Source: an uncultured Acidobacteriota bacterium
GTDB taxonomy: Bacteria; Acidobacteriota; Vicinamibacteria; Vicinamibacterales; 2-12-FULL-66-21
Direction: 5' to 3'
Assembly (NCBI GenBank): GCA_963697775.1
Contig: CAVOPH010000003.1
Coordinates: 151,844 to 215,843 of the forward strand
DNA length: 64,000 nucleotides
Both the position numbers and the translations under genes were made by a program. Positions 1,539-59,577 of this stretch are shown here, in pieces; the first letter of the stretch is position 1, and each line of letters opens with the position of its first letter. The notes below the pieces were generated by a model, which saw only the letters and a list, made by a program, of their open reading frames with translations, made no database searches and was not told the DNA's origin.

Positions 1539-1720
1539 GGCCACAGGCCACAGAAGAACACGGACAAACAAGCCACAGAAGAACACAGACAGACACTGCT
1601 GGCGAATCTGAGTCCCGTCCCACCTGACACCTGACAGGCCTTCGTTCCTCGACACCCAGTGGCTTGCTCTTCTATAGCTGTGTTCTTCTGTGTTTTTCTG
1701 TGGCGCGTTTGTCTGTGGCC
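1539..1720. repeat. composite inverted repeat filling a convergent intergenic region (CACAGAAGAACACAG-type units)
   Basis: Left arm: ggccacaggccacagaagaacacggacaaacaagccacagaagaacacagaca. Right arm: tgtgttcttctgtgtttttctgtggcgcgtttgtctgtggcc. The arms are imperfect reverse complements with termini GGCCACAG...CTGTGGCC. The element is AT-richer than its flanks and lies between the stop codons at 1522 and 1720. Confidence 0.6.
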
Positions 1721-3893: not shown

Positions 3894-4005
3894 GCCAGGT
3901 GTTCGCGGCAGAGCTACAAGGAACACGCCTCTTCCGTCTTGCAGGAAAGTCGCCACTTTCGCGATCCGCGTCGTGCTATAATCAAGGCACTCCAGCGGAA
4001 CAAGT

Positions 4006-5061
4006 TTGATTAGGTCAATTCTCTCCGGCCGGTTCGGCCGGAGTTTGTATCCCCTTCTCTTCCTCTTATTGGTCGGCGGCGCCTCACCTGCGTGTGTCGC
4101 CAGCACCTCTATCGTCTCTCGCACCACAGCCGAGCTTCTCGTTGCGCCAGAGCCGTCGGTCGCGTGGTTCGGTCCCGACGATCGCGGAGACAGCGTTTCG
4201 CTCACCCGTTGGCGGGGCAGCGTCGGGCCGCCGGTGACGCCGACAACCGAGTTCAATGCCCGGCCTCACGACGCGATCACCATCGTGAGCTGGAACACCG
4301 CCGTGGGCGAAGCGGATGTCGTTGGGTTCGTTCGAAGCCTGCCGGTTACAGATCGCCCCCTCGTGCTTTTGCTTCAGGAGGTCTATCGCGGAGGATCGGC
4401 CGTGCCGGGCCGGCTGGATCACGACGCCGCTTTTGCCGGTCGTCTGGGCGGCGACACCGGCGACGATCCTGGCTCGCGTCAGATTGAGGCGATCGGCCGC
4501 CAGCTCGGCCTGGCAGTGTATTACGTGCCGTCGATGCGCAACGGCGGTTCCACGTCGGACGAGGACCGCGGCAACGCGATCCTGTCGAGCCTTCCCCTCA
4601 CGGATTTGCAGGCGATGGAACTGCCCTTCGAACGACAGCGCCGCGTCGCGATCGCTGCAACCCTGACGGGACAGGCTTCGAATGGTGAGCCCTGGCGCAT
4701 CCGAGTCGTGTCCGCACATCTCGACAACATGGCGGGCATCAAACGCGGCTGGATTGGCGCCGAATACGGGCGCGCCAGGCAGGCTCGCAGCCTCGCGTCG
4801 CTGCTCAAAGACGACGAACCAACGATTCTCGCGGGCGACTTCAATACCTGGTTCGGGTTCTGCGATCAGGCCTACGTCGAAACCGCGCGAGCGTTTCCGG
4901 AAACGCGGGTCACGGATCGCCGTCCCACTTTCCGCGGTCTACTCCGCCTCGATCACGTCTTCTATCGACTGGCCCCCGGTTGGCGGGTCGAATTCCGGCG
5001 CGCGTCATCTCGATATGGCTCAGATCACTATCCGCTCGTCGGCTTGCTCAGCTTCCATTGA
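4006..5061 (+). CDS. endonuclease/exonuclease/phosphatase (EEP) family protein, secreted or lipoprotein
   Basis: EEP motifs are present: ITIVSWNT, LLLQEV, VVSAHLDN, LAGDFNTW and GSDHYPLVGLL. There is a hydrophobic N-terminal signal ending SPAC. Confidence 0.8.
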   Translation: MIRSILSGRFGRSLYPLLFLLLVGGASPACVASTSIVSRTTAELLVAPEPSVAWFGPDDRGDSVSLTRWRGSVGPPVTPTTEFNARPHDAITIVSWNTAVGEADVVGFVRSLPVTDRPLVLLLQEVYRGGSAVPGRLDHDAAFAGRLGGDTGDDPGSRQIEAIGRQLGLAVYYVPSMRNGGSTSDEDRGNAILSSLPLTDLQAMELPFERQRRVAIAATLTGQASNGEPWRIRVVSAHLDNMAGIKRGWIGAEYGRARQARSLASLLKDDEPTILAGDFNTWFGFCDQAYVETARAFPETRVTDRRPTFRGLLRLDHVFYRLAPGWRVEFRRASSRYGSDHYPLVGLLSFH

Positions 5062-8539: not shown

Positions 8540-8540
8540 C

Positions 8541-8589
8541 GCGATTCGCGATTCGCAATTCGCAATTCGCAATTCGCGGTTCGCGGTTC
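8541..8589 (+). repeat. heptamer tandem repeat (GCGATTC)2(GCAATTC)3(GCGGTTC)2
   Basis: Seven contiguous 7-nt units start 2 nt after the kinase stop codon (TGA at 8537-8539). Confidence 0.9.
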
Positions 8590-8611
8590 GCCCGCCTTCG
8601 GCTAGGCCGGC

Positions 8612-9816: not shown

Positions 9817-9865
9817 ACTTTTGACTTTTGACTTTTGACTTTTAACTTTTAACTTTTAACTTTCA
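9817..9865 (-). repeat. heptamer tandem repeat; read on the minus strand (TGAAAGT)(TAAAAGT)3(CAAAAGT)3
   Basis: On the plus strand there are seven contiguous units: ACTTTTG x3, ACTTTTA x3 and ACTTTCA. The array includes the pruA stop codon (9863-9865) and runs toward the next minus-strand start at 9791. Confidence 0.9.
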
Positions 9866-11992: not shown

Positions 11993-12068
11993 GCCGGCGT
12001 AGCTCAGTTGGTAGAGCAGCTGATTCGTAATCAGCAGGTCCTCGGTTCAAGTCCGAGCGCCGGCTCCA
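11993..12068 (+). tRNA. tRNA-Thr (anticodon CGT)
   Basis: The cloverleaf can be read directly: acceptor GCCGGCG/CGCCGGC, D arm GCTCAGTTGGTAGAGC, anticodon stem-loop GCTGA-TTCGTAA-TCAGC, T arm CTCGG-TTCAAGT-CCGAG, and an encoded CCA. Confidence 0.93.
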
Positions 12069-14735: not shown

Positions 14736-15148
14736 TCATTCTACGCCCGTCGCAAGACAGGGCTCGTATCGGTTTGCGCCTCCCCAGCAGTCAGCTTCGG
14801 GCTGCAGGGACGGACGACGTGAGAGTCCGGTTGTCAGCGCTTTCTGTGCTCTTCTACCTGGACCCCGTGCTCGGGGGTCTTAAGGGCACTGCATAACCGG
14901 CGCTGGAGCCGTCGCGCCCAGCGGTCAGGTGCGATTCTGTCGGCGGCGGCGCGCGGCTCAGCGCCGGTCGTTAGGCTGACGAGCAGTATGGTGCCTGTGG
15001 TCGGCGGTGTTCGGCGCGGTGACCGGAGGGTGGCATCTGACTGACTGGTCGAAACGTCGTAGCCGGTCCTGGCAGGACATGACCGGCCACGGTACCGGCA
15101 GATGCCACAACCGACGAAAACACTGAGGAGGATCGATCGTACGATCCC

Positions 15149-15291: not shown

Positions 15292-17733
15292 CTACTCTGC
15301 TCTCAGCGCGCAGACCACGTCCACCCGCGAGGCGCGCGCCGCCGGCGTCAGCGACGCGACGATCGCGGCGACGACGAGGACCAACGCTGCGCCGGCGATT
15401 GCTGCGATCCCGGGCATCTGCACGTCGGGCACGAAGCTGCCGACGATCCGCGAGAGCAGCACCCCGCCGATCGCGCCCGCGGCGATGCCGCCGATCCCGA
15501 TCGCGGCGCCCTCGCCGAGGACCCGCACCAGCAGGTGCGTCGGCGTCGAGCCGACCGCGAGCCGCACCCCGAACTCGCGCGTCCGCGCGCTGACCGAGAA
15601 CGCCAGCACGCCCGCGACGCCGACGACCGCGATGAGCAGCGCCACCCCGGCAAACCCGCCGAACACCAGCGCGTTGACCCGCGTCGGCGCCAGCACGTCG
15701 GCGCGAATGTCGTCGAGCGTCGCCGCGCGCTCCACCGGCTGATCGTTCGCCAGGTCGCGGATCACCTTCGTCACCGGCGGCACGAGCGCATACGGATCCA
15801 TCTTCGCGTGGATGAAGAGCCGGCCGCCGCTCATCTCCTGCTCGATCGGGTGATACACCGTCATCGTCGGCTCGGGCACCAGGTGCTCGTCGTCCACGTC
15901 GGCGACCACGCCGACGATGCGCCGGGGATCGGTGCTGACGCCGATGAACTTGGTGACCGGATCCGTCCACATCATCCGGCGATTCACGGCGTCCAGGCTC
16001 GGCAGCATCCGCCGCGCGAGGGTCTCGCTGATGATGACGACCTTCTCGCCGTCCGCGCGATCGCCGTCGTTGAAGTCGCGGCCGGCGATGAGCTTCACGC
16101 CGAGCGCGCTGAAGAAGCCCGGCGACACGGTCCGGAACTGCGCGCGTGGATCCTCTTCCCCATTCGCCTTGCGGTAGCCTTCCACCGTGAACTGTGCGGC
16201 GAAGAAGCCCGGATCGCGCCACGGCACGACCGTCCCGAGCGCCACGCGCTCGACGCCAGGCAGCTCCGAGATCCGGCGGATCGCTTCCTGGTAGAACCGC
16301 GCGACGTCCGCGGGCTTCCGCGTGTAGGACACGACCGGAACATTCACCGCCAGCAGGTTCCCGCGGAAACCGGTCTGCTGGCGCTGCAGCGCGAAGAGCG
16401 TCGTGATCAGCATCCCGGCGCCCGCGACGAGCACGAACGACGCGCCGATCTGGGTGACCGCGAACACGCGCAACCGGCGGTTCGTGCCCGACGTCAGCCG
16501 GACACCGCGCCCGGTCAGACCCATGCCGTTGGCGGCGTCCGCCGACGGCAGCCGCGGCACGAACGCCAGCAGCACCGCGGCGGCGATCGCGAGTCCGCCG
16601 CCAACCCAGAGCAAGCTCGAATCGACGGTGACGTCGTGCGCGCGCACCGAGAAGCGTGCCGCATAGAGGGACAGAACCGCGACCATCGGCCGCGCGATCG
16701 CGACCGCCAGCACCGCGCCGGTCGCACAGAGGAGCACGCTTTCGGCGAGCAACGTCCGCCGCAGCGCGCCCGTGCCGGCGCCGAGCGCGGCGCGAATCGC
16801 CAGCTCTCCTTCGCGCCGGACCGACCGTGCGAGGATCAGGTTCGCGACGTTCGAGCACGCGACGATGAAGACGAGCCCGGACGCCGCCAGCAGCACCAGC
16901 AGGATCGTCCGCGCCGGCGAGATGATCTCGTCGCGCAACCCCTTTGCGTCGATGCGGAAGTCGGCCTGCTTCTCGTAGGCCTCGGGGTGTGCTTTCACCA
17001 TCGCCGCATGCGCCACGCGCAGCTCCGCCCGCGCGGCGTCGAGCGTCGCGCCCGGCGCCAGACGGCCGAAGAGCTCCGTCATCCGGTGCACGCGTCCGTC
17101 GACCATCGTGGCGTCGAGGTGATGCGGGCTCGTGACGACGTTGGCGATGATCTCGGTCTCTTGCGGATACGGCACCGACGGCTCGAGCACGCCGACGATC
17201 GTCGCCGGCCGATCGCTCAGCCGCACCTGCCGGCCGATCACGTTCGGATCGCTCTTGAAGGCGCTCGTCCAGAACCGGTAGGTCAGCACCGCCGCGCCGT
17301 CAGCCTTCGGCCCATCGTCGGACGGTCCGAGCAGCCGGCCCATCACCGGCTGCAGGCCCATCACTTCGAAGTACGAGCCGCCGACCACACCCGCGCGAAC
17401 GGTCCGCGGATCGCCGAGGCCGACCATCGTGAACTCGATCGTCGAGAAATCGCCAAACGCGCTGAGCGACTTCACCGACTCCCGCAGATCTTTCAGCTCC
17501 GGCACCGAAAAATTCGCGTTCGCCATGCCGATGCCAGACGCGCTCTGACGGATGTAGATGAGGCGGTCGGCACCGCGGTTGACTAGCGGCCTCAGCAGCA
17601 CACCGCGCACGACACTGAAGATCGCCGCGTTGGCGCCAATCCCCAGCGCCAGCGTGAGGACTACGGTAATGGCCAGGCCCTTGGCTCGGGCGAGCGACCG
17701 AAGGGCGATTCGAAGATCGGTGATCCAGCTCAT
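15292..17733 (-). CDS. ADOP-family duplicated FtsX/MacB-like ABC transporter permease
   Basis: 813 aa. N-terminus: MSWITDLRIALRSLARAKGLAITVVLTLALGIGANAAIFSVVRGVLLRPL. It contains two FtsX-type 4-TM modules, each preceded by a large periplasmic domain. Confidence 0.88.
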   Translation of the reverse strand: MSWITDLRIALRSLARAKGLAITVVLTLALGIGANAAIFSVVRGVLLRPLVNRGADRLIYIRQSASGIGMANANFSVPELKDLRESVKSLSAFGDFSTIEFTMVGLGDPRTVRAGVVGGSYFEVMGLQPVMGRLLGPSDDGPKADGAAVLTYRFWTSAFKSDPNVIGRQVRLSDRPATIVGVLEPSVPYPQETEIIANVVTSPHHLDATMVDGRVHRMTELFGRLAPGATLDAARAELRVAHAAMVKAHPEAYEKQADFRIDAKGLRDEIISPARTILLVLLAASGLVFIVACSNVANLILARSVRREGELAIRAALGAGTGALRRTLLAESVLLCATGAVLAVAIARPMVAVLSLYAARFSVRAHDVTVDSSLLWVGGGLAIAAAVLLAFVPRLPSADAANGMGLTGRGVRLTSGTNRRLRVFAVTQIGASFVLVAGAGMLITTLFALQRQQTGFRGNLLAVNVPVVSYTRKPADVARFYQEAIRRISELPGVERVALGTVVPWRDPGFFAAQFTVEGYRKANGEEDPRAQFRTVSPGFFSALGVKLIAGRDFNDGDRADGEKVVIISETLARRMLPSLDAVNRRMMWTDPVTKFIGVSTDPRRIVGVVADVDDEHLVPEPTMTVYHPIEQEMSGGRLFIHAKMDPYALVPPVTKVIRDLANDQPVERAATLDDIRADVLAPTRVNALVFGGFAGVALLIAVVGVAGVLAFSVSARTREFGVRLAVGSTPTHLLVRVLGEGAAIGIGGIAAGAIGGVLLSRIVGSFVPDVQMPGIAAIAGAALVLVVAAIVASLTPAARASRVDVVCALRAE

Positions 17734-19928: not shown

Positions 19929-20288
19929 ATGCCCAAGCAGCGGATTGCCTTCGTCCTCGTATCGGAGCCCTGGTGGTCAAGCGTCGCGCCCTTACTGGCG
20001 CCGAGTCCACGCCCTGCCACAGCTCCTCTGGTCAGGTTGCTCGGGCCGCTGGTGAATCAGGATGCGGCTGGCATCTGGCTCGGCGAAGTCCCAGCCAACC
20101 TCACGCGGGCAAAAGGTGGGTCGCACGTGATGATGTCCCTCTTGATTCCGTGGGACCAGATCATCGCTATGGGCGCTCTCGAGGAATCGAGCGGGTTGAA
20201 GCCCGGTTTCGCCGCCATGTCTGTGGAGACTGTCTCGGATCCGCCCTCGGCGGGGCGCGTTGAGCCACGCCCGCCGATCCCGCGATGA
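19929..20288 (+). CDS. hypothetical protein (119 aa)
   Basis: This is the only ORF with high GC3 that fits the 480-bp gap. It is convergent with mreB. No family recognised. Confidence 0.35.
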   Translation: MPKQRIAFVLVSEPWWSSVAPLLAPSPRPATAPLVRLLGPLVNQDAAGIWLGEVPANLTRAKGGSHVMMSLLIPWDQIIAMGALEESSGLKPGFAAMSVETVSDPPSAGRVEPRPPIPR

Positions 20289-20301
20289 ACTTGCGCCTGG
20301 C

Positions 20302-21309
20302 TTAGTTCGCAGACAGCTTCATCAAGAGCTCGCGATCGTTGAGCAGCTTGCCGGCGCCGATGACGACGGTGGCCAGCGGATCGTCGGCGACGATGATGGG
20401 AAGACCGGTCTCGTCGCGCAGGCGCTGACTCACGTTGCGGAGCAGCGCGCCGCCGCCCGTGAGTACGATGCCGCGCTCGTAGATGTCGCCGCACAGTTCC
20501 GGAGGCACGGACTCGAGCGCTTCACGAATCGCCTTGACGATGGCGCGGACTGTCTCCCCCAGCGCCTCTCGTATCTCAGCGTCATTAACCGTAACGGTAC
20601 GCGGAACGCCCTCGGACAGATGGCGGCCCTTCACGTCGGTCCGGAGCGGCGTCTCGAGCGCCATCGCCGATCCGATCTCGCACTTGATCCGCTCGGCCGT
20701 CGGCTCGCCGATGAGCAGGTTGTGCTTGCGCTTCATGTGCTGGATGATGGCATTGTCCATGTCACCGCCCGCGACGCGCAGCGAACGGCCGTAGACGACG
20801 CCCGACAACGACACCACGGCGATGTCTGTGGTTCCTCCTCCGATGTCGACGATCATGTTGCCGGTCGGTTCGGTCACCGGCAGGCCCGCACCGAGTGCCG
20901 CGGCCATCGGCTCGTCGACGAGCCGCACTTCGCTGACCTTCAGCCGCTTCGCGCTTTCTTTCACCGCCCGTCGTTCCACCGGCGTGCTGGCCGGCGGCAC
21001 GCAGATGATCAGCCGCGGCCGCGAGTAGCTGTGTCCCTTCGCCTTCGCGACAAAATACGCGAGCATCTTTTCCACCGCCTCGAAATCGGCGATCACGCCG
21101 TTTCGCATCGGCCACACGGGTTTGATGTTCGCCGGGGTTCGTCCAAGCATGTCGCGGGCATCCGTCCCGATGGCTTCGACGCTGCCACGCAGGACGTTGA
21201 ACGCGACAACCGAGGGTTCGCTCAGCGCGACGGCGCCGCGCGTGTATATCGAGGTGTTGACCGTCCCCAAATCGAGGGCAATGTCAGAGTCGGTCCCGAA
21301 GAGACCCAT
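20302..21309 (-). CDS. mreB: rod-shape-determining actin homologue MreB
   Basis: Start MGLFGTDSDIALDLGTVNTSIY. Further motifs: EPSVVA, MRNGVIADF, LVDEPMAAALGAGLP, MIVDIGGGTTD and IVLTGGGALL. Confidence 0.92.
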   Translation of the reverse strand: MGLFGTDSDIALDLGTVNTSIYTRGAVALSEPSVVAFNVLRGSVEAIGTDARDMLGRTPANIKPVWPMRNGVIADFEAVEKMLAYFVAKAKGHSYSRPRLIICVPPASTPVERRAVKESAKRLKVSEVRLVDEPMAAALGAGLPVTEPTGNMIVDIGGGTTDIAVVSLSGVVYGRSLRVAGGDMDNAIIQHMKRKHNLLIGEPTAERIKCEIGSAMALETPLRTDVKGRHLSEGVPRTVTVNDAEIREALGETVRAIVKAIREALESVPPELCGDIYERGIVLTGGGALLRNVSQRLRDETGLPIIVADDPLATVVIGAGKLLNDRELLMKLSAN

Positions 21310-36028: not shown

Positions 36029-36047
36029 GGCCTTCAGAGGATCGCCA

Positions 36048-36695
36048 ATGATCAGACCGCAACTCATGGTGCCTGTGCTTCTTCTCATGGCGTCAGCAAC
36101 CGCGTCCGCTTCACCGGCTGGCGCCGACGAACTGTTCGGTGACCGGCCGTCCCGGGCGTGGCGGATCGACTGGACCGCACCGGCTGTCGCCCCCACACCC
36201 TTTCACGATGCCGTCGTCACTGCCTTCGACGTGCGTGACGATCAGTCGTCGCCGCCGCCGGTCGTCGCCACCGAGTACAGCCACGCCTATCAGGTCAGGG
36301 CGAAGATTCACAAATACGCGAGTTTTGCGACACTGCCGCTGTTCGCAACCGAAATCGCGCTCGGGCAGTCGCTGTACAACGAACCCGGCGGCAGCAAGAA
36401 AACCGCGCATGCCGTCGTCGGCGCCGGCATCGGCAGCCTCTTCGCCGTCAACAGCGTTACCGGCGCGATGAACCTCTGGGAAGCGCGAAAGGATTCCGTC
36501 GGCCGCACGCGCCGACTGACGCACGGGCTCCTGATGATGGCAGCCGACGCTGGTTTCTTCGCGACCTTTCTTGCAGCGCCTGACGGCGAACACGGCGATT
36601 TCACGGACGGGCGAAGCACCCATCGGAACATCGCGATCACGTCGATTGGGCTCGCGACGGCAGGGTACCTGACGATGCTTTTCGGAGGCAAGTAG
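36048..36695 (+). CDS. hypothetical membrane protein (signal peptide plus C-terminal TM helices)
   Basis: MIRPQLMVPVLLLMASATASA. The C-terminal half has 3-4 hydrophobic helices. It is in the same operon as the cytochrome c and Rieske genes. Confidence 0.55.
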   Translation: MIRPQLMVPVLLLMASATASASPAGADELFGDRPSRAWRIDWTAPAVAPTPFHDAVVTAFDVRDDQSSPPPVVATEYSHAYQVRAKIHKYASFATLPLFATEIALGQSLYNEPGGSKKTAHAVVGAGIGSLFAVNSVTGAMNLWEARKDSVGRTRRLTHGLLMMAADAGFFATFLAAPDGEHGDFTDGRSTHRNIAITSIGLATAGYLTMLFGGK

Positions 36696-36698
36696 GAC

Positions 36699-37175
36699 AT
36701 GTGGGGATCACACATCATTGAGACGTGGACGTCGGTCTATGCCAACTCGAGCACGATTCGCACGCTGCTCGGATTCGCTCACGTGGCCGGATTGATTATC
36801 GGCGGAGGCTCGGCCATCGCCGCCGACCGCGGCGTGCTCCGCGCCGTTCGCCGCGCCCCATCAGAGCTCTCCGCTCATTTGACCACGATCCGCAACGCGC
36901 ACTCGATCGTCATCGCGAGCCTCGCGGTTGTAATGACGAGCGGCCTGCTGCTCGCGGCCGCCGACACCGAGACCTTTCTTCACTCGACGCTGTTCTGGCT
37001 GAAGATGGGACTCGTGGCGCTGCTCATCGTCAACGGCGCGTTCATGCGCCACGCCGAACGGGCCGCGAGCGGCGCACGACCGCTATGGACGCCGCTCGCG
37101 ATTGCCTCGGGTGCGAGCCTCGCGTTGTGGCTGCTGACGACGCTGGCGGGGGCGGCGCTGCCCAATGTCCACTGA
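36699..37175 (+). CDS. hypothetical 4-TM membrane protein
   Basis: 158 aa. The ATG lies 3 nt after the upstream stop codon and behind AGGA. Helices: LLGFAHVAGLIIGGGSAIAA, IVIASLAVVMTSGLLLAAA, LKMGLVALLIVNGAF, LAIASGASLALWLLTTLAGAAL. Confidence 0.55.
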   Translation: MWGSHIIETWTSVYANSSTIRTLLGFAHVAGLIIGGGSAIAADRGVLRAVRRAPSELSAHLTTIRNAHSIVIASLAVVMTSGLLLAAADTETFLHSTLFWLKMGLVALLIVNGAFMRHAERAASGARPLWTPLAIASGASLALWLLTTLAGAALPNVH

Positions 37176-37641
37176 CGACTGCCATCGCTGCCCGCTCCAC
37201 GACGGCACGAGCCGCCGGGTCTTCCTGCAGGAAGCCGGCGGCGGTCTGGTTGCGGCGTTTCTGGTCGCGATCACGGCGACGAACGCGACCGCGGGATCGG
37301 CCGAGAAACGCTATCCGATTCCTGCGAGCGATGGCGCCACGGTTGATCGAGACTCGCAAGTGATTCTCGTCCGCTACCAGAATCGCGTCGTCGCGCTGGC
37401 CCTGGCGTGCCCTCACCAGAACGCCGCCGTCAAGTGGCTGCCGAGCGACGGGCGGTTCCAGTGCTCCAAGCATGATTCGCGCTACACGCCTGACGGCGTG
37501 CACACGGCTGGCCGCGCCACGCGCAACATGGATCGGTTTCCGATTTCTCGCGACGGCGCGTCGGTGGTCGTCGACGTCAGCCGTGTCTTCCGATCGGATC
37601 AGGATGCCCCCGGATGGGTGGGGGCGGCCATCACAGTCTAG
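37165..37641 (+). CDS. Tat-exported Rieske [2Fe-2S] domain protein
   Basis: Twin-arginine signal TSRRVFLQEAGGGLVAAFLVAI. Rieske ligands CPHQ and CSKHDSRY. It overlaps the upstream gene by 11 nt. Confidence 0.8.
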   Translation: MSTDDCHRCPLHDGTSRRVFLQEAGGGLVAAFLVAITATNATAGSAEKRYPIPASDGATVDRDSQVILVRYQNRVVALALACPHQNAAVKWLPSDGRFQCSKHDSRYTPDGVHTAGRATRNMDRFPISRDGASVVVDVSRVFRSDQDAPGWVGAAITV

Positions 37642-37750
37642 GTTCTGCTGGGTTCTGCCACGTTCTACGGGGTTCGTTCTGGTTCTGCCAGGTTCTACGG
37701 GTTCGTGCGGCTTCGAACCTTGTAGAACCCAGCAGAACCCAGTAGAACCT
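37641..37750. repeat. 10-bp-phased GGTTCTRC repeat array with an inverted distal arm
   Basis: Forward copies start at 37641, 37651, 37661, 37671, 37681, 37691 and 37700. The centre is CTTCGAAC. Inverted copies GTAGAACC, GCAGAACC and GTAGAACC follow. The array begins inside the Rieske stop codon (TAGGTTCTGC). Confidence 0.9.
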
Positions 37751-37755
37751 AATTC

Positions 37756-38634
37756 GTGCAGACCTTCGTCATCGTCATCCGGATCCTCGCCAACCCGATC
37801 TCCAATCTCTTTCAGAAGCAACTCGCCGAACGATCGGCCCGTCCAATTTTCATCATCGGCGTGGTGCACCTGTGCCTGGCCCTGGTGTGCGCGCCGGTGC
37901 TGCTGATTCTTAGCGTCCCCGCAATCTCGGCCGATGTCTGGATCAATATGGTTGTCGCGGCGATGCTCGCCGTCGCCGGTAATACGGTCCTCGTTCATGC
38001 GCTCCGTTCAAGCGATCTGTCGATCCTCGGACCGGTCAATGCGTACAAGTCAGTGATCGGCCTCGTGCTGGCAATCTTCCTGATTGGGGAGTATCCGTCG
38101 GTGGTTGGGATGACCGGCGTGGTGCTGATCGTGGCGGGCAGCTATCTCGTCGTCGATCGAGAGGCCGGGCAACCCCGCCGCAATGCGTTCATCCTGTTCT
38201 TCCGCGAGCGCGGAGTCCAGTTGCGATTCGCTGCACTCATTCTGGCGGCTGCGGAGGCGGTCTTCCTGAAGCGGGCGATTCTCGTGTCGTCGCCATGGAT
38301 CGTGTTCGCTCTCTGGTCAATCCTCGGAGTTCCGGTAGCTGGAGCTGCGTTTGTGCTCGATGCTGCCAGTCTGAACGAGCAAGCGTTGAACCTTCGTCAC
38401 CTCTGGCGCACGTATCTGGCTCTGGTAGTTGCAACGGGCCTGATGCAACTGGCCACCGTCCTCACCTTCGGCCGGATGCAGGTGGGATACTCGCTGGCGC
38501 TCTTTCAGCTTTCCACCATCGTCAGCGTCCTGCTCGGACATCGCTATTTCCAGGAGAAGAACATTCGAAAGCGTCTCGCCGGATCGATCGTGATGACCGC
38601 GGGTGCGATCATGGTTGTCGCGTTCGGATCCTGA
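37756..38634 (+). CDS. EamA/DMT-superfamily transporter
   Basis: 292 aa, about 10 TM helices in two halves (NTVLVHALRSSDLSILGPVNAYKSVIGLVLAIFLIGE). Confidence 0.7.
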   Translation: MQTFVIVIRILANPISNLFQKQLAERSARPIFIIGVVHLCLALVCAPVLLILSVPAISADVWINMVVAAMLAVAGNTVLVHALRSSDLSILGPVNAYKSVIGLVLAIFLIGEYPSVVGMTGVVLIVAGSYLVVDREAGQPRRNAFILFFRERGVQLRFAALILAAAEAVFLKRAILVSSPWIVFALWSILGVPVAGAAFVLDAASLNEQALNLRHLWRTYLALVVATGLMQLATVLTFGRMQVGYSLALFQLSTIVSVLLGHRYFQEKNIRKRLAGSIVMTAGAIMVVAFGS

Positions 38635-38942
38635 TCGTCGAGCGGCGTTCTGCCCCTCGATGTGTTCAAAGTGTGGCGGGATGGAACACGCCCTTGTGCT
38701 GTTTCGGATCACGTCGCCGGATTAACGTTGGGAATTCCTCGAAATTTCACCGATATAAGCTCGGCACTACTCTTGTAACCCCTCCTCCACGAAAAGCGCT
38801 GCAGGACACTTGGCCGGTTACGGTTGCCCGCGGGGGAGTCTGGGGACACCACACAACGTACGGTTCTGCGAGAGCGCGCGTTATGACCGGTATGGATGTC
38901 ATCAGATTCGACAGCCCGCGAGCTTCTCAGAGGACGCTCTTT

Positions 38943-39182
38943 ATGGCAGATGACTGTTCGCATTGTCGTGAGGAACTCGCACGGTTGACCGAAGAGAACG
39001 CTGCGCTTCGGCGTGCGGCGCAGGCCTTTGGCAGCCTTGCGGAGCGCCTGAACCTTGCGCTCCAGGAAGAGCGGCGAGCGCGCCAGCGCTCAGCCAATGC
39101 ACCGCGCGAGACGACGGAGGCCGTCAGCCATGCGCCGACTACGGTCAGGCGCATTCGATCGCAGCACGGAGCTCAGGGATAG
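38943..39182 (+). CDS. hypothetical small coiled-coil protein
   Basis: MADDCSHCREELARLTEENAALRRAAQAFGSLAERLNLALQEERRARQ.... The upstream 300 bp are noticeably AT-richer. The start is uncertain; the ORF is open from 38295. Confidence 0.35.
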   Translation: MADDCSHCREELARLTEENAALRRAAQAFGSLAERLNLALQEERRARQRSANAPRETTEAVSHAPTTVRRIRSQHGAQG

Positions 39183-39272
39183 CGAAGGCATCCGCTTGAT
39201 GTCAGGACCCATGACCCGGAGGATTTGAGGCGACCAGCAGTACGATCCCGCGGATACGATAGACGCCAGCAG

Positions 39273-40274
39273 ATGGCGATCCGCACAATTCTCAGCGACC
39301 GCGGCGACGCGGGCCAGCGGTTGGATCTCGTGCTCCGTAGACATCTTGCGGATCTCGAATCGGCAACCCGCACTCGCGTGCAGACGTGGATCGATGGAGG
39401 AACCGTCAGCATCAATGGTCAAGCCGTTCGCCGCGTCGCGACGCGAGTCGCGAGCGGCGACGTGCTAACGGTAGACATTCCCGACGCCGCTCTCCCGCCC
39501 CCTCGACCCGTCGAGCCAGACTCCTCTCCCCTCGACATTCTTTTCGAAGACAACGACCTTCTGGCGGTCAACAAGCCGGCCGGCATGGTTGTTCATCCGA
39601 CTCACGCGCACCCCGACGGAACGCTGTTTAACCTTCTCGTGGGCCACGCCCGACCGTGGCCGGCCGCGACGAGACCGTCGCTCGTCGGCCGCCTGGACAA
39701 GCTGACGTCTGGCATCGTCCTCGTCGCCAAGACGCCTGCCGTTCACGCAGCCCTGCAACGGACGATGGCCCGTGGTGAAACTGAGAAGGACTATCTCGCG
39801 CTCGTTTACGGCCGAGTTCCCGCCGCTGCGACGGACATCGCGTTGCGGCTCAGACGCGACGATATCGATCGACGTCGAATGGCGACGTCACCTTCGATTG
39901 GCGCCCCCAGCCTCACGCGTGTCGCCCGCCTGGCGCAGATCGCTGCGCCAGGGGTCGGCCTCGCACTGCTTCGTTGCCGCCTCGTCACCGGCCGCACCCA
40001 TCAGATCCGCGCGCACCTTTCGGCGCGTGGATGGCCGATTGTCGGGGATCCCACTTACGGTGAACCGCGCTGGATGGGAGTGGCCAATGTGGATCTCGCT
40101 GATGCGCTTCGCGCGTTTCCTCGGCAGGCGCTGCACGCGTGGCAGCTGTCGTTCAGACATCCCGTCACGTCGGCGCTCGTGAACGTGGAAGCGCCGATAC
40201 CCGAGGACATACGCGACTTACTGAACAGAACTGGGTTCTGCAAGGTTCTTCAAGGTTCGGCAGGGTTCTACTAG
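39273..40274 (+). CDS. RluA-family 23S rRNA pseudouridine synthase (RluD-like)
   Basis: S4-like N-terminus (RLDLVLRRHL...VSINGQAV). Motifs LAVNKPAGMVVHP, GRLDKLTSGIVLVAKT and TGRTHQIRAHL. The last ~13 codons are encoded by the GGTTCTRC repeat array. Confidence 0.88.
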   Translation: MAIRTILSDRGDAGQRLDLVLRRHLADLESATRTRVQTWIDGGTVSINGQAVRRVATRVASGDVLTVDIPDAALPPPRPVEPDSSPLDILFEDNDLLAVNKPAGMVVHPTHAHPDGTLFNLLVGHARPWPAATRPSLVGRLDKLTSGIVLVAKTPAVHAALQRTMARGETEKDYLALVYGRVPAAATDIALRLRRDDIDRRRMATSPSIGAPSLTRVARLAQIAAPGVGLALLRCRLVTGRTHQIRAHLSARGWPIVGDPTYGEPRWMGVANVDLADALRAFPRQALHAWQLSFRHPVTSALVNVEAPIPEDIRDLLNRTGFCKVLQGSAGFY

Positions 40275-40360
40275 GTTCGTTCACGTTCTGCGAGGTTCCA
40301 CCAGGTTCGCTGAACGAACCCAGCAGAACCCAGTAGAACCCAGCCGAACCCTGTAGAACC
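40234..40360. repeat. 10-bp-phased GGTTCTRC repeat array: 8 forward and 5 inverted copies
   Basis: GGTTC or CGTTC cores occur at 40234, 40244, 40254, 40264, 40274, 40284, 40294 and 40304. Inverted GAACC cores end at 40320, 40330, 40340, 40350 and 40360. The array spans the whole gap between the convergent stop codons at 40274 and 40364. Confidence 0.9.
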
Positions 40361-40363
40361 TGA

Positions 40364-41425
40364 TCAGCGTATTCGGACCCGAACCGAGTACTGGTCCGGC
40401 ACCGTCGCGGAACTGTTCGGCACCCGGATCGGCGGCAACTCGAACGACAGCACATCGTCCGGCCCCGGCATTGGATTTCGAGTTGTGCTGCTCCCGCTGG
40501 CACCGCTCGTCGCATCGCGATTCGGGCCGGTTGAGGAGTACCAGACCCTGCGTATTGTTGTGAAAACCAACTGCGGAGAGCCCTCGTCGGCCGTCAGCCG
40601 CAACAATCCTCTAATTTGAACATTGAGAGGTCCCGCTGCGGTGTCGACCGTGAAGGGCGAAAAGGCAAAGCCGGCGGTGTCAACCTCCCGCAATATGAGA
40701 CCTTGCAGGTTGTACTCAGGATTTTCTGGATGAGCCTTGTCGGTCCTCACCAGAAAGAGCTCGAATGTTCTCGAACTCACACCAACCATGCTGTCTGTCT
40801 TTGGCATGTGAACCAGTCGACCACCACCGCCGCCACTGCTCGCGCCTGCTCCGACGCCCGATCCTGAGCCTGAGCTTGCGCCGCCGCCAGAGGTGCCGCT
40901 CCGCATGATCGTGACCGCCGGTGATTCAGTCAGTGGTCCGGCGGGTCCGACCATCCACCCGGGTCGAGGCTCGTACCTGGCCTCGAAGCTCACTGTCCTG
41001 GCGCCGCAACCAGCGGTTGGATCCGGTGTCGCAGAATCGAGCGGTACTCGATCGCCGGGATGAAGCGTCAGTTGAATCGACGCGCCCGGTGCCGTTGTGG
41101 CCACCCCCGCACTTCGAATGCGCTGCCAGTCGACTCGGACCACCGCCTCATCGCCGGTCATCCTCTCGACCTTGCCTGAAATTCGCCAGGCATCGGTCGC
41201 TGAATCAGGAACGGGCCGGTTTCCTCCACCGATCATGCAGCCTGCAATGTACTGACGTGATTCGGTCGCAAGTGTCGTCTCGTAGGCGGCAGCTTGTGAC
41301 TTGCCATCCGGTCCATACGAAAAGACGCCGACCTGCAGCACCGGAGTGTCCGGCGATTTCGACGGGGCACCACCGGTCGCCTGCGCCGCAAGAATGAGCA
41401 GAGCGATTGAAATCGTCATTGTCAT
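40364..41425 (-). CDS. hypothetical secreted protein with a Gly/Ser-rich linker (third gene of the ECF operon)
   Basis: Signal peptide MTMTISIALLILAAQA. There are two globular halves separated by SGTSGGGASSGSGSGVGAGASSGGGGG. The start overlaps the anti-sigma stop codon (ATGA). Confidence 0.6.
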   Translation of the reverse strand: MTMTISIALLILAAQATGGAPSKSPDTPVLQVGVFSYGPDGKSQAAAYETTLATESRQYIAGCMIGGGNRPVPDSATDAWRISGKVERMTGDEAVVRVDWQRIRSAGVATTAPGASIQLTLHPGDRVPLDSATPDPTAGCGARTVSFEARYEPRPGWMVGPAGPLTESPAVTIMRSGTSGGGASSGSGSGVGAGASSGGGGGRLVHMPKTDSMVGVSSRTFELFLVRTDKAHPENPEYNLQGLILREVDTAGFAFSPFTVDTAAGPLNVQIRGLLRLTADEGSPQLVFTTIRRVWYSSTGPNRDATSGASGSSTTRNPMPGPDDVLSFELPPIRVPNSSATVPDQYSVRVRIR

Positions 41426-51462: not shown

Positions 51463-51497
51463 ACAAAAGTTAAAAGTTAAAAGTTAGAAGTTAAAAG
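51463..51497 (+). repeat. heptamer tandem repeat (AAAGTTA)n immediately after a stop codon
   Basis: aaacaAAAGTTAAAAGTTAAAAGTTAGAAGTTAAAAGACC begins directly after the squalene epoxidase TAA (51460-51462). The unit is the same as in the 9817-9865 array read on its gene's sense strand. Confidence 0.9.
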
Positions 51498-55518: not shown

Positions 55519-55540
55519 AAGTTCAAAGTTCAAAGATTCA
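55519..55540 (+). repeat. short heptamer repeat AAGTTCA AAGTTCA AAGATTCA after a stop codon
   Basis: It starts 2 nt after the exporter TAA (55515-55517) and overlaps the convergent stop codon at 55538. Confidence 0.7.
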
Positions 55541-56260: not shown

Positions 56261-57865
56261 TTACTTCCGCGCCGGCTGCCCGTTCATCACGAACGCCCAC
56301 AACGTATCTCCCGCGCCGACGATCACGTACTGATTCCCATCGAGCTCGTACGTGATCGGCCCGTTGCTGACTGAGGCGTTGAGTCCCGCGTGCCACAGCG
56401 CTTCGCCGGTCGCCGCATTCAGGGCGACGAGATCGCCCGAGGCGCCGCCGCTGAAGAGCAGATTGCCGGCGGTGCTGAGCAGACCGGCGCGCGTCCCCCA
56501 CCTTCCCACGGGTGGCTCCATTTCACCTTGCCGGTCTTGTAGTCGATCGCCTGAAGCATCGATTCACCCCAGCCGCCGCGATCGGTGCCGCCCCAGCCCT
56601 GCGGATTGTCTCCGGGGTCGTAGATGTAATACACGCTGAACGCGCGCGTGGCGTTGACGTAGAAGAGACCAGTCTGCGGACTGAACGTCGGCGGCGGCCA
56701 GTTGGCGGCGCCTCCCTGGTTCGGGGTCACGAGCGCGCCGTCGATCTGCGGATGCTTCTTCGGATCGGGCACCGGCTGACCCTTTTCGTCGTAGCCCGAC
56801 GCCCAGTTCGTCTTCACGTATTCCGACGAGATGATCGCGGTACCGTTGGTGCGATCGAGCACGAAGAAGTGGCCGTTGCGCGCCGCCTGTGCGACGAGCT
56901 TGCGCGTCTGACCGTTGACCTGACCGTCGAACAGGACCGCCGTCTGCGTGGAATCCCAGTCGTGCGTGTCGTGCGGCGATGACTGGAAATACCAGTTCAT
57001 CTTGCCGGTGTCCGGATTGAGCGAGACGATTGACGCCGTGAACAGATTTGCGCCGGTACGATTGACGTGTGCGATCACCGGCTGCGGATTGCCGGTGGTG
57101 ACATACATCTGATTCAGCTCGGGATCGTAAGTGAACGGCTGCCAGGTCATGCCGCCACCGTGCTTCATCGCGTCTTCGTTCGGCCACGTGTCGGACCCGG
57201 GCTCTCCCTTTTTTTGCGGTACCACATACCACCGCCAGATCATTTCGCCGGTCTCCAGGTTGTGCGCCTGGGCGTACCCGGGAACGTCCAGGTCGTCACC
57301 GCTCACGCCGACCATGACTTTGTCCTTCACGATAATCGGCGCGACCGAACCGTAGTAGAACTGGTCGAGATCGCAGATCTGTTTGTGCCAGCGTTCGCGT
57401 TCCGTCCTTGATGTTCAGCGAGACGAGATTGCAGTCCGGGGTTTCGAAATACAGCCAGTCGCGATAGATTGCCGGGCCGCGATTGCCGATGTGAATCCCG
57501 CCTTTCGACTGCCAGATGTGGTGCCAGATCTCGCGCCCGGTCCGCGCGTCGAGCGCCCACACGTGATCCGGTGCGGTGAGATAGATCACGCCGTTGACCT
57601 GGAGCGGCGTCCCCTTGATCGCGCCAGGATTGCCGCCCCCGCCAGGATTCATTCGGTAGACCCAGCCGAGGCTCAGCGCGCCGATGTTGCCGTCGTTGAT
57701 CTTCGTCAGCGTGCTGAACCGGCGGCCGGTGTAGTCGCCGTTGTAGCTCGGCCACGAGTCCGTGCCGGGATTGAGAAGCTTCGCGGGATCGAGGCCCGTC
57801 TGCGCCGTCGTCAACATGACCGCGGCACAGACAAAACTGGACGCAGCGAATATGGCGCGTTTCAT
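56261..57865 (-). CDS. PQQ-dependent (quinoprotein) dehydrogenase; two frame interruptions (56495-56499 and about 57398-57408)
   Basis: Signal peptide MKRAIFAASSFVCAAVMLTTAQ. Beta-propeller repeats: LSLGWVYRM, PLQVNGVIYLTAPDHVWALDARTGREIW, VSLNPDTGKMNWYFQ, LQAIDYKTGKVKW, LVALNAATGEALW. Three ORFs (57296.., 56419..57330, 56261..56521) join colinearly. One junction lies in a C5/G5 homopolymer. Confidence 0.85.
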
Positions 57866-58783
57866 TTCAGCGTCTCCAGATAGGCAACCACGTCGTGAAT
57901 GTTCTTGTCGGTGATCGTTTCGAGCAACGCGTGATGGGCAGCAAGCGGATCGTCCTTGACGACCTTGACGCCGGGCCCGCGCTTGAACGTCCGGTAGACG
58001 CCGGAGCTGTCGCGCAGCGACACGTTGAAATCGTCCATCTGCAGCAGGACGCCGGTGACCGCCTCTCCATTCGACGGGGTCACGGTGACTTTCACTGAGC
58101 TCGTCGGCGGAGGACCGCCTCGACCGCGACCGCCGCGCGCCGCCTCCGGGAAAGAGAAAGCGCTGCTGCAAATCAATCGGCTCATACCGGCCGCCAATCC
58201 CCGCGAGGTTCAGGGTGGTCGCCGTATGACACGTCGCGCACTTCCCGGCCCCGTTGAAATACTCGGTTCCGGCCTTCGCGTCCCCGGTCAGCACGTTCTG
58301 CGGCTGGAAGAGCGGCGAGCCGCGGAACGAGTCATTGACGCGCTGCCGCAGAAAGTGGGCAAGGTTGACGATCTGATCGTCGGTCAGCGTCGATGCCGAC
58401 CCGCCGCTCTGCATCTTGTGTCCGCGCTTCAGAAAGGGCCCGAGCTCGTTGCCATATCGATCGCGCAGGACGACGAGCGAGCGCGTCAGGTTCGGTCCAT
58501 TGTCGGTGCCGCGCGCCTGGGTGCCGTGACAATTGATGCACTCGGCCGCCCACACGGTGCGTCCCCGGTCCGCCAGCGCGGCTTCGACAAACGGCGCATC
58601 CGCCGGCCCCGCGCCCATGACGCCGCCGCGGGCACGTCCGCCTCCCGCCGGGGGCGGCGTCTGCTGGCCGCCGCGTCCTCCGGCCGGAGGCTGCGGCGCC
58701 TGAGCGCTGATGATGGTCACCGTTGCCGACAAGCCGAACACGGCCATTCCAATCCAGACTCGAGAAGTACAGGCGCTGCGCAT
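57862..58783 (-). CDS. dihaem c-type cytochrome (partner of the PQQ dehydrogenase); frame interrupted about 58105-58150
   Basis: Haem motifs CINCH and CATCH. The C-terminal domain continues in ORF 57862..58197 (VKVTVTPSNGEAVTGVLLQMDDFNVSL...VAYLETLK). Its stop codon overlaps the dehydrogenase ATG (ATGA). Confidence 0.8.
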
Positions 58784-58822
58784 GGGTATCGTCTCCGGTC
58801 GCGCCATCATACCTTCAATAAA

Positions 58823-58903
58823 GGTTCTACTGGGTTCTGCAGGGTTCTACCAGGTTCTGCTGGGTTCGTTCAGGGTTCTGCAGGGCTCGTTCAGGGTTCT
58901 ACG
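58823..58903 (+). repeat. 10/11-bp-phased GGTTCTRC repeat array (8 forward copies)
   Basis: Cores occur at 58823, 58833, 58843, 58853, 58863, 58874, 58884 (GGCTC) and 58895. The array lies between the cytochrome c start and the HAD stop codon (58899-58901). Confidence 0.9.
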
Positions 58904-59577
58904 AAGTTTTTGCGAGAGCCTGCGGGCTGAGATCGATGTCGAGCAGATCGCCGATGCGATCGACGGTGATGTCGGCGGGCGGATAGCGGTGGAGCACGTC
59001 GGGGTCGCGTGCGTAGTGGCCCTGACGCGGAAAGACGGTGGTGACGTGGCTTCCCCACACGGTTTTGATCGCGTCGAGCAGTCGAAGCTTGTCGTCCACG
59101 ATCACGTAGTGTTCGGCTGGAAACCGCCGCTCCACGTCTTCAAGCTCCAGCTTCCTTGTGCACGTAAATCAGCACGTTGCCGTCAACGGCTTCATAGAGC
59201 CCGGATCGCTCGATCTTTCGCGGCTGAAAGACCACGTCGCCGTCGGTGAGAATCACGGCCGGCCCCCACGCTTTCACGCGATCGATCACGTCAAGCGAGT
59301 TCGGAAACAGCCGGTTCGCAAATGGGTAATTAATGAGATACGACGACGCTTTGAGGACGTTCAGATCGTGCGGGCATTCGGTGCGGTATTGCTGCAGCGC
59401 GCCAAGGTAATCGGCATACCCCAGTTCCGAGCGAAGACGCTCGAAGATCACCCAGTATCGCCGCGCCGGCTCCTCCCCGACGGACCTCTCGAGGTGCCGC
59501 ATCAAATCGGCAACAACACGGTCGTTGTCGAGCAGGGTGTTGTCGACATCGAGCAAGTAGACAATCGACGAACGCAT
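58899..59577 (-). CDS. HAD-superfamily hydrolase; frame interrupted about 59140-59160
   Basis: Motif I is YLLDVDNTLLDN. ORFs 59140..59577 and 58899..59135 join as ...VLIYVHKE / LELEDVERRFPAEHYVIVDDKLRLL (motif IV, DD). Confidence 0.75.

Follow-up and report, generated by a model that had tools for sequence, protein, structure and literature searches.

We analysed a 64,000-nucleotide stretch of DNA from an uncultured Acidobacteriota bacterium of the order Vicinamibacterales (contig CAVOPH010000003.1; hereafter the window) and identified three arrays of a 10-bp unit with a GGTTC core, located at 37641-37749 (locus 1), 40234-40360 (locus 2) and 58823-58902 (locus 3). The arrays are members of a dispersed, intergenic, hierarchically built decamer-repeat family with a foldback architecture, an assignment that we hold to be near-certain. 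The family is apparently undescribed and falls among the REP/BIME-, BOX- or foldback-like dispersed repeats. Our interpretation as a whole, in which we have slightly better than even confidence, is that locus 1 is a copy of a lineage-specific, non-coding intergenic repeat that spreads by recombination and serves as a structured spacer resembling REP/BIME or BOX elements; within it, we are almost sure of the membership of a repeat family and far less so of how the arrays act.

Architecture of the three arrays

At locus 1, direct reading and a listing of motif positions gave a forward arm of seven 10-bp units (37641-37709), a short centre or loop (37710-37714) and an inverted arm (37715-37749). 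The forward units are, in order, GGTTCTGC, GGTTCTGC, cGTTCTAC, GGTTCGTT, GGTTCTGC, GGTTCTAC and GGTTCGTG. Their GGTTC cores begin at 37641, 37651, 37671, 37681, 37691 and 37700, and the remaining unit carries the one-base variant CGTTC at 37661. A preliminary description of this DNA had reported such a motif family with seven forward copies at locus 1, which is real if the variant is counted, and a spacing of exactly 10 bp, which applies to every step except the last, of 9 bp. The palindromic centre that it placed here narrows to TTCGAA (37712-37717), contained in GGCTTCGAACC (37708-37718); the whole of CTTCGAAC is not palindromic. The inverted arm has GAACC cores at 37715, 37725, 37735 and 37745, in tTCGAACC, GTAGAACC, GCAGAACC and GTAGAACC. 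Three of them form full GYAGAACC units, matching the three inverted copies first counted, although the cores themselves number four.

The region 37641-37749 reads TAGGTTCTGCTG GGTTCTGCCA cGTTCTACGG GGTTCGTTCT GGTTCTGCCA GGTTCTACG GGTTCGTGCG GCTTCGAACC TTGTAGAACC CAGCAGAACC CAGTAGAACC, where the leading TA belongs to the stop codon of a Rieske gene and precedes the array, and the sequence 3' of the stem is UAAUUCGUG. The array does begin within this stop codon, as first described: its first base is the G of TAG (37639-37641). At the other end, 6 nt separate the last unit from the GTG start, at 37756, of a gene for an EamA transporter.

The recurrence of the motif at 40234-40360 and 58823-58903 was likewise confirmed by direct reading, with locus 3 ending at 58902. 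Locus 2 comprises a forward arm of eight units (40234-40310) and an inverted arm of five (40311-40360), which stops 3 nt short of the stop codon of a minus-strand gene at 40364-41425. Locus 3 is a single arm of eight forward units, with neither an inverted arm nor a hairpin; viewed in the direction of the minus-strand genes it consists of GYRGAACC units, the last of them 12 nt before the ATG of a cytochrome c/PQQ-dehydrogenase gene. The arms of loci 1 and 2 are 78-89% complementary over 19-50 nt. The long imperfect hairpin proposed earlier for locus 1 was recovered by RNA fold prediction (-69.8 kcal/mol, z -10.4), and locus 2 is predicted to form one too (-68.6 kcal/mol, z -7.9), while locus 3 gave -16.7 kcal/mol (z -2.1) and no hairpin.

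Chance clustering or misassembly is a practically negligible source of these arrays. The pattern GGTTC-N5-GGTTC-N5-GGTTC, with at most one mismatch, had 18 matches in the window, all within loci 1-3, where shuffled sequences lead one to expect 0.01. A separate ENA assembly record of 620 bp (L117) is 100% identical to window positions 37102-37721 and ends within the locus 1 array, and arrays of the same kind lie within megabase-scale contigs of metagenome-assembled genomes (MAGs). Both observations speak against the assembly artefact that the preliminary description had allowed for, and make one very unlikely. The same architecture occurs, moreover, in dozens of contigs from many samples, megabase-scale ones included, and orthologous sites are filled in several genomes. 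What the artefact explanation has in its favour is that short-read contigs break at the arrays, L117 ending in locus 1 and another contig (L057) beginning in an array, which indicates that such repeats are hard to assemble.

A decamer family of the Vicinamibacterales

To place the arrays in a wider context, we scanned one genome per species (185,579 species) with the pattern GGTTC(N5)x4 and obtained at least 116 stretches. Among the matches listed, about 45 (~40% of the at least 116) come from about a dozen Vicinamibacterales/Acidobacteriota MAGs, many loci sharing one MAG, and the remainder are unrelated simple repeats in scattered taxa. The counts of units, two-armed arrays and contexts given below rest on the acidobacterial loci among these listed matches. 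Most of the acidobacterial stretches pair forward and inverted matches 40-200 bp apart. The recurrent architecture is a forward run, a short loop and an inverted run, 80-290 bp in total, and single-arm arrays also occur; the predicted RNA stems of the relatives' arrays range from -38 to -216 kcal/mol.

From 328 units spaced at 10 bp we derived the consensus GGTTC-Y-R-C-N-R. Conservation reaches 94% for Y at position 6, 95% for R at position 7, 98% for C at position 8 and 95% for R at position 10, none of which was fixed by the search pattern; the conservation of GGTTC itself is partly an ascertainment effect of that pattern. The 10-bp spacing holds for 328 of 504 steps, and the others, of 5, 7, 8, 9, 11 and 15 bp, fall mostly in composite inner units such as GGTTCGGTTCTTG.

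Above the level of the unit, about four regular units are followed by a GGTTCGTTC unit, forming a five-unit module that is common to loci 1-3 and to arrays in L002, L005, L007, L044, L054, L080, L093 and L118. The sharing of this module indicates that the arrays are copies of a defined arm and not independent products of slippage. Furthermore, all 22 two-armed arrays have the same polarity, with GGTTC units running into the loop and GAACC units leading out of it, as expected of copies of a single defined element. The unit subtype is particular to each genome: TAC/TGC, CAC/CGC, CAG/TCG or, in Bin.028, GGTTCGGTTCTTG inner units.

The decamer family is specific to the Vicinamibacterales, with related foldbacks of unit GGTTCCTCGG in the Thermoanaerobaculia. 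The latter, a 9-10-bp unit in MAGs of another acidobacterial class (L061 4194-4283; L091 1622-1732 and 5188-5231; L113 306-415), occurs in foldback and single forms of the same architecture. Separately, four Ferrovibrio MAGs (Alphaproteobacteria; L048, L068, L072 and L096) carry intergenic single-arm arrays of 8-12 units of GGTTCGTTNN, a unit similar to GGTTCGTTC, the inner one in the acidobacterial arrays. We found no description of the decamer foldback family in the literature. The only match to Rfam in the window at gathering threshold was a tRNA (11993-12065), and an E-value scan of 37500-40500 returned only a chance snoRNA match (E = 0.21); the earlier view that the element cannot be assigned to a described one thus stands.

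Position relative to genes

Genes in the relatives were called heuristically, as long open reading frames (ORFs) with high GC3, and the positional statements that follow depend on these calls. All of the ~40 arrays are intergenic, occupying the whole gap between two genes, and none lies convincingly inside a gene. In most of these cases the array ends 0-12 nt from the stop or start of a flanking ORF, and the median intergenic gap is 226 nt with an array against 74 nt without. Seven arrays occurred in ~150 kb that had not been chosen for arrays (the window, L118, L212, L213 and L215-L217), or about one per 20 kb. The flanking genes were tandem in 16, convergent in 8 and divergent in 3 of 27 arrays, compared with 105, 44 and 35 of 184 gaps in the background from the same loci (all p > 0.45).

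Persistence and turnover at orthologous sites

The gap before the EamA gene could be followed through several relatives. Against the 7 forward and 4 inverted units of the window, L210/L211 (95% amino acid identity in EamA, with the same Rieske gene upstream) retain only CTTCGA and an inverted arm that has degenerated; they lack the 69-nt forward arm, and the junction shows no duplication. L118 (78%) has 2 + 4 units, and L213/L214 (71%) have 1 + 6, the last unit lying 5 nt from the GTG, with a divergent gene upstream. In L212 (74%) there are no decamers and a heptamer array, (CTTTTGA)n, occupies the same place (3991-4016), while the more distant L215-L217 (59-65%) have no array. Decamer arrays thus precede the EamA start in four of five relatives at 71-95% identity, and the inverted arm is the conserved part of locus 1, being kept in L118, L210/L211 and L213/L214. 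The array is not specific to the Rieske gene, since L118, which lacks the three-gene block that includes Rieske, still has an array directly before EamA. We infer that neither the Rieske nor the EamA gene has a dedicated regulator in the arrays.

Two further sites are filled in several genomes. Before the cytochrome c/PQQ operon there are 8 units in the window, 7 in L216 and 2 in L217, all in the GYRGAACC sense and directly upstream of a conserved start, ATGATG..CG.CCGGAGA. In L217 this region (~15540-15700), upstream of the cytochrome c gene and its two residual GAACC units, also holds another type of repeat, namely two copies of a direct repeat, CGTTATGAAACCGTTATCTCTGACTT, and an inverted pair, ACGGAGACGAACGAAG / CTTCGTTCGTCTCCGT. 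The gap between a radical-SAM and an FAD-halogenase gene is filled in three genomes with flanks of 78-80% nucleotide identity; the arrays measure 171, 245 and 197 bp, and each has the inner units characteristic of its genome.

The units found before start codons raise the question of a 5'-leader, promoter or translation-initiation module, in which GYRGAACC units would tune expression and unit number would act as a spacer tunable in steps of one helical turn. Such units do end 5-12 nt before the start in four lineages for EamA and in three for the cytochrome c/PQQ operon, there is no Shine-Dalgarno sequence between the units and the EamA start, and the arrays of L213 and L216 must overlap promoter or leader DNA because they lie between divergent genes. 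The heptamer array before EamA in L212 also recalls the TAACTGA repeats of Beggiatoaceae, which are found just upstream of start codons (PMC4679880). Nevertheless, because the polarity is fixed, any gene that starts beside a two-armed array automatically sees GYRGAACC. Three of about ten single-arm arrays are oriented the opposite way (L040, L078, L093), convergent gene pairs, which offer no start codon, also have arrays between them (locus 2; 8 of 27), the promoter scan gave no sigma-70-like promoter, and distant EamA orthologues (59-65% identity) have no array. On these grounds we regard a leader function as quite improbable.

The gap downstream of the gene for an RluD-like pseudouridine synthase, where locus 2 lies, has had a different history. 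A GGTTC array is present there in the window only; L213 has one small hairpin and L212 none. On this comparison of sequences, the locus 2 array is best read as a gain in this lineage. The boundaries of the event are not precise, as the site is filled in the window alone, different hairpins or none at all are present in the relatives, and the ORFs do not end alike. In the corresponding gap of L118 (5993-6056) we observed two short perfect hairpins, CTTCCGCCTAGAGGCGGAAG and CTTCCGCCTTTAGGCGGAAG (CTTCCGCC-N4-GGCGGAAG), which are absent from the window; the L118 RluD ORF stops at a TAG in the loop of the first. They look like a different REP-like family.

In the genomes compared, the arrays are long-persistent, fast-changing in unit and arm number, homogenised to a genome-specific consensus and occasionally established at new sites with ragged boundaries.

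Tests of mobility

An active non-autonomous transposon of the MITE (miniature inverted-repeat transposable element), REPIN or foldback type, whose arms would be reiterated binding sites for a transposase encoded elsewhere in the genome, could account for several of these properties: the invariant polarity of the inverted arms (22 of 22), the shared five-unit arm module, the dispersal over many unrelated loci and the gain at the RluD site in this lineage only. A terminal motif, (A/T)GATCA|GGTTCTAC, is present at about a quarter of the ends, and the arms of the Drosophila Foldback element likewise consist of tandem units. Genome-specific subfamilies are also a feature of REPINs (PMC3116915, PMC3337134).

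Other observations make a transposon unlikely. No direct repeat was common to the left and right flanks of the 22 two-armed arrays (44 ends), which means that no target-site duplication was detected. Both datable events have ragged boundaries: the locus 1 forward arm lies between TAG and CTTCGA without a duplication, and locus 2 alters both flanking ORF ends. There is no transposase beside any array in ~300 kb of acidobacterial loci, no pair of forward and inverted arms encloses a gene, and no RAYT (Y1/HUH transposase) flanked by repeats was found in the array-bearing loci examined. All-against-all clustering of 552 ORFs from these loci returned only common acidobacterial paralogue families, namely MacB/FtsX permeases, PadR, ECF sigma factors, SDR, FAD-halogenase and radical SAM proteins. 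Similarly, a scan of viral contigs gave 12 matches, none of the decamer family, and the sites are stable over long divergence and do not turn over. GTAG-type REPs have been catalogued in Proteobacteria, Cyanobacteria, Chloroflexi and PVC bacteria, and neither they nor REP-flanked RAYTs have been reported for Acidobacteria (PMC3733652).

In the recombinational interpretation that we favour, exchange between copies, through recombination, gene conversion or template switching, would both spread them and keep them alike, replication slippage within the arrays would add to this, and cut-and-paste transposition would be the less likely route.

Helical phasing and possible modes of action

The 10-bp spacing had initially been taken as a sign of cooperative binding of a protein along one face of the DNA. 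This argument lapses, as 10 bp is the length of the tandem unit and other spacings occur: with tandem 10-bp units the spacing is automatic and is not independent evidence for one-face binding. Moreover, 7-bp arrays occupy equivalent places in the same window. We also calculated curvature with the Bolshoy-Trifonov wedge model. The arrays fell between the 87th and 96th percentile of the window, and an idealised (GGTTCTACAG)12 had an end-to-end to contour ratio of 0.94, compared with 0.33 for an A-tract control. The predicted curvature is modest and strong static bending was rejected.

A DNA-level platform, on which a protein recognising GGTTCYRC would polymerise along the array, nevertheless deserves consideration, even if we find it rather doubtful. 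The candidates would be a nucleoid-associated protein, a gyrase- or condensin-type factor or a domesticated transposase, with roles in chromosome organisation, supercoil management or insulation. Its best argument is that eight of the ten unit positions are strongly conserved over genomes only 59-78% identical in their flanking proteins, which slippage alone explains poorly, although the GGTTC part of this conservation is partly due to the search pattern. Single-arm arrays keep their units without a hairpin, RNA folding shows no strand bias, a spacing of one helical turn would turn every unit to the same side of the double helix, and co-evolution with a binder would give genome-specific subtypes such as TAC/TGC, CAC/CGC and CAG/TCG. 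The REP/BIMEs of E. coli, for their part, bind gyrase and IHF. On the other side, no candidate protein was found, the recurrent array neighbours being only members of the large MacB/FtsX, PadR and ECF sigma paralogue families. With a true helical repeat of ~10.5 bp, units placed exactly 10 bp apart shift around the helix by roughly a third of a turn in the course of seven units. Steps of 5, 7, 8, 9 and 15 bp are common within arrays, and the predicted curvature is ordinary by the same 0.94 to 0.33 comparison.

At the RNA level, both arms transcribed together would give a 40-60-bp imperfect stem acting like a REP/BIME or BOX element, that is, a structured spacer that would block 3'-exonucleases and read-through and insulate neighbouring genes. 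The preliminary description had proposed a REP-like RNA structure acting as a terminator or stabiliser; REP-like is the right neighbourhood, whereas the terminator part fails for want of a U-tract.

Several results weigh against the structured-spacer interpretation. Folding both strands of the 22 two-armed arrays, as a test of RNA-level selection through G-U wobble, revealed no advantage for the sense strand, and the antisense strand folds better in six of seven tandem-gene contexts; such selection is not supported. Single-arm arrays such as locus 3 cannot form a stem at all and are found in both orientations relative to transcription. A scan of 37000-41000 showed no U-tract terminator in or at the arrays, and a promoter scan no sigma-70-like promoter in or beside them. 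A terminator reading cannot hold for locus 3, which is single-armed, nor for the arrays of L213 and L216, which separate divergent genes and occupy promoter or 5' regions; part of the family thus cannot act purely at 3' ends. With the heuristic gene calls, the orientation contexts of arrays do not differ significantly from background (27 against 184), and so a REP-like preference for 3' ends is not demonstrated. As for the mode of spread, the only pointers to conversion or template switching are the absent target-site duplications and the ragged boundaries. Finally, the core consensus is the same across genomes with only 59% EamA identity, which neutral slippage alone explains poorly and which hints at a trans-acting factor.

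A further proposal is that of a new class of bacterial "foldback satellite" kept uniform throughout the genome by a dedicated trans-acting protein that would read GGTTCYRC once per helical turn, in a REPIN-RAYT-like partnership or a nucleoid or transcription-insulation system of the Vicinamibacteria and possibly the Thermoanaerobaculia. We hold this proposal, too, to be rather unlikely. The arrays might also act as serial RNA polymerase pause sites, given that a period of 10 nt together with the YG step in most units makes each transcribed unit reproduce the G(-10) Y(-1) G(+1) core of the elemental pause.

Two other candidate functions were set aside. A coding function was rejected, because the unit length, 10, cannot be divided by 3 and the translations are frame-shifting filler. 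Likenesses to the tRNA T-loop/B-box (GGTTCGAA) and to the -35 element of ECF sigma factors (GGAAC) were seen by eye and dropped because the fit is not systematic.

Genes flanking the arrays

The Rieske [2Fe-2S] gene upstream of locus 1 (37165-37641, plus strand; Pfam Rieske) belongs to a three-gene block (~36048-37641) with genes for a 230-amino-acid protein without a Pfam hit and a DUF6644 protein. The block is present in the window and in L210, and absent from the syntenic relative L118 (window 36030-37640 compared with L118 3421-3429); its right boundary is the GGTTC array. Junctions of indels or of recombination may be marked by arrays. The EamA/DMT transporter gene (37756-38634, plus strand) immediately follows locus 1, and its start codon is confirmed by homologues of 290-299 amino acids.

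Locus 2 is flanked by the RluD-like pseudouridine synthase gene (39225-40274, plus strand; S4 and PseudoU_synth_2 domains) upstream and, on its right, by the convergent gene without a Pfam hit (40364-41425, minus strand). The first 41 nt of the array belong to the RluD-like ORF, which ends at a TAG within the array (40272-40274). The last ~15 codons of this ORF are not conserved, the match to relatives stopping at residue 334 of 349, and the final 13 codons and the stop are supplied by the array. By sequence reading, the convergent gene has about four codons fewer than its counterpart in L118.

At locus 3, the cytochrome c and PQQ-dehydrogenase ORF (57296-58810, minus strand) starts 12 nt from the array. 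It encodes 504 amino acids, in which an Arg-rich, low-complexity joint connects a cytochrome c domain to the beginning of a PQQ-dehydrogenase propeller. In L216 and L217 cytochrome c, a small ORF and PQQ are separate genes, and the window ORF may be a frameshifted fusion. On the other side, two minus-strand ORFs in different frames (58899-59135 and 59140-59577) together resemble one HAD-type hydrolase, with the Pfam Hydrolase match falling on the upstream part of the pair, which may represent a frameshift or a pseudogene.

Other repeats in these genomes

The window also contains four heptamer arrays, (CGCGATT)x7 at 8540-8591, (ACTTTTR)x6.7 at 9817-9863, (AAAAGTT)x4.7 at 51465-51497 and (RAAGTTC)x3 at 55519-55540, three of which begin 1-3 nt from a stop codon. 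Those at 9817-9863 and 51465-51497 share the unit TAAAAGT, which is oriented alike in both with respect to the gene upstream, and it is this heptamer family that also lies directly before the EamA start in L212.

A foldback unrelated to the decamers (1539-1720) has about two CCACAGAAGAACAC(A/G)GACA units facing inverted CTGTGTTCTTCTGTG units. It lies just past the stop of a minus-strand ORF (1720-3558) and its RNA is predicted to fold with -87.1 kcal/mol (z -5.2). Inside the same ORF, a GC-rich tandem repeat at 3115-3251, with periods of 6, 15, 24 and 30 bp, probably encodes a low-complexity repeat region. In L216 (Acidobacteriota MAG MFD02199), a 20-bp tandem repeat and heptamer arrays are found at 20080-20318, 14747-14795 and 20427-20526; the 20-bp unit, CGGCGGGGTCAGACCCCAGA, is present in 12.4 copies with a small hairpin in each. 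These acidobacterial genomes seem to be generally rich in intergenic short tandem repeats.

Significance

Vicinamibacterales are among the most abundant soil bacteria and genetically barely studied. If the density of seven arrays per ~150 kb holds genome-wide, there would be on the order of hundreds per genome, making the decamers a major intergenic structural feature. They break short-read assemblies and rewrite the ends of flanking genes, as with the 13 array-encoded codons of RluD, and they may affect mRNA stability, read-through or chromosome structure. In practical terms, the unit consensus is a simple clade marker and a flag for misassembly or mis-called gene ends. Dispersed intergenic repeats of this general class are common in bacteria; what is unusual here is the architecture and the concerted evolution without a visible transposase. 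We found no described bacterial counterpart for the combination of decamers in inverted arms, persistence at orthologous sites and genome-specific homogenisation. The family offers a tractable system for asking how dispersed repeats stay uniform without an obvious transposase.

Comparison with known systems

CRISPR arrays and integron attC sites could be ruled out. The units here are 10 bp long and contiguous, without spacers, as opposed to the 23-50-bp repeats with unique spacers of CRISPR arrays. The polarity of GGTTCYRC ... GYRGAACC is opposite to that of RYYYAAC ... GTTRRRY in attC, and GTTCYRC does not fit GTTRRRY. In addition, the genes flanking the arrays are housekeeping genes in mixed orientations, unlike an attC cassette context, and no integrase was seen in the part of the window scanned against Pfam.

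Intrinsic terminators are similar in being GC-rich stem-loops just past stop codons, including between convergent genes as at locus 2, and differ from the 40-60-bp, imperfect, repeat-built stem, which has no U-tract and is also found before starts and between divergent genes. With MITEs the two-armed arrays, though not the single-arm locus 3, share terminal inverted repeats, without the target-site duplication. The short tandem heptamers known from cyanobacteria (STRR) and the Beggiatoaceae TAACTGA repeats (PMC4679880) are likewise abundant, intergenic, often placed a few nucleotides from starts or stops and without a known mechanism of spread; the window's own heptamer arrays belong to this type. 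The decamers differ from them in period (10 and not 7 bp), hierarchical module, inverted arms and host phylum.

REPs form intergenic clusters, for the most part in gaps between tandem or convergent genes (PMC3733652); divergent gaps seldom hold them. The decamer arrays resemble REP/BIMEs in being high-copy, non-coding, intergenic, often clustered and capable of forming stem-loops in RNA or single-stranded DNA, as well as in their vertical persistence and lineage-specific subfamilies; many decamer units even hold GTAG (GTAGAACC). However, a REP is a 20-40-nt imperfect palindrome with GTAG at its unpaired end, whereas the unit here is a non-palindromic decamer, GGTTCYRCNR, arranged head-to-tail. 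The stem is built from whole arrays with 4-15 units per arm, GTAG is one GYRG variant internal to the unit, and the loci examined contain no RAYT.

Pneumococcal BOX elements have the organisation boxA - boxB(n) - boxC, with modules of 45-59 bp. They share with the decamer arrays a modular intergenic design with variable internal tandem units, complementary outer parts and a stable structure, and neither has a known transposase or a target-site duplication. The sequences are unrelated, and in the decamer family 10-bp units make up the arms themselves, and copies with a single arm are common.

Drosophila Foldback (FB) elements have inverted terminal repeats made of 10-, 20- and 31-bp tandem units, with the 10-bp units outside and longer composites centrally. 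They are eukaryotic and kilobase-sized, with 9-bp target-site duplications and, in some copies, ORFs. The analogy lies in long inverted arms of short tandem repeats and in variable arm length; the kilobase size, the target-site duplications and the ORFs are not seen in the decamer arrays. By such analogies, the decamer family would work most like REP/BIME or BOX elements and looks most like miniature arms of Drosophila Foldback.

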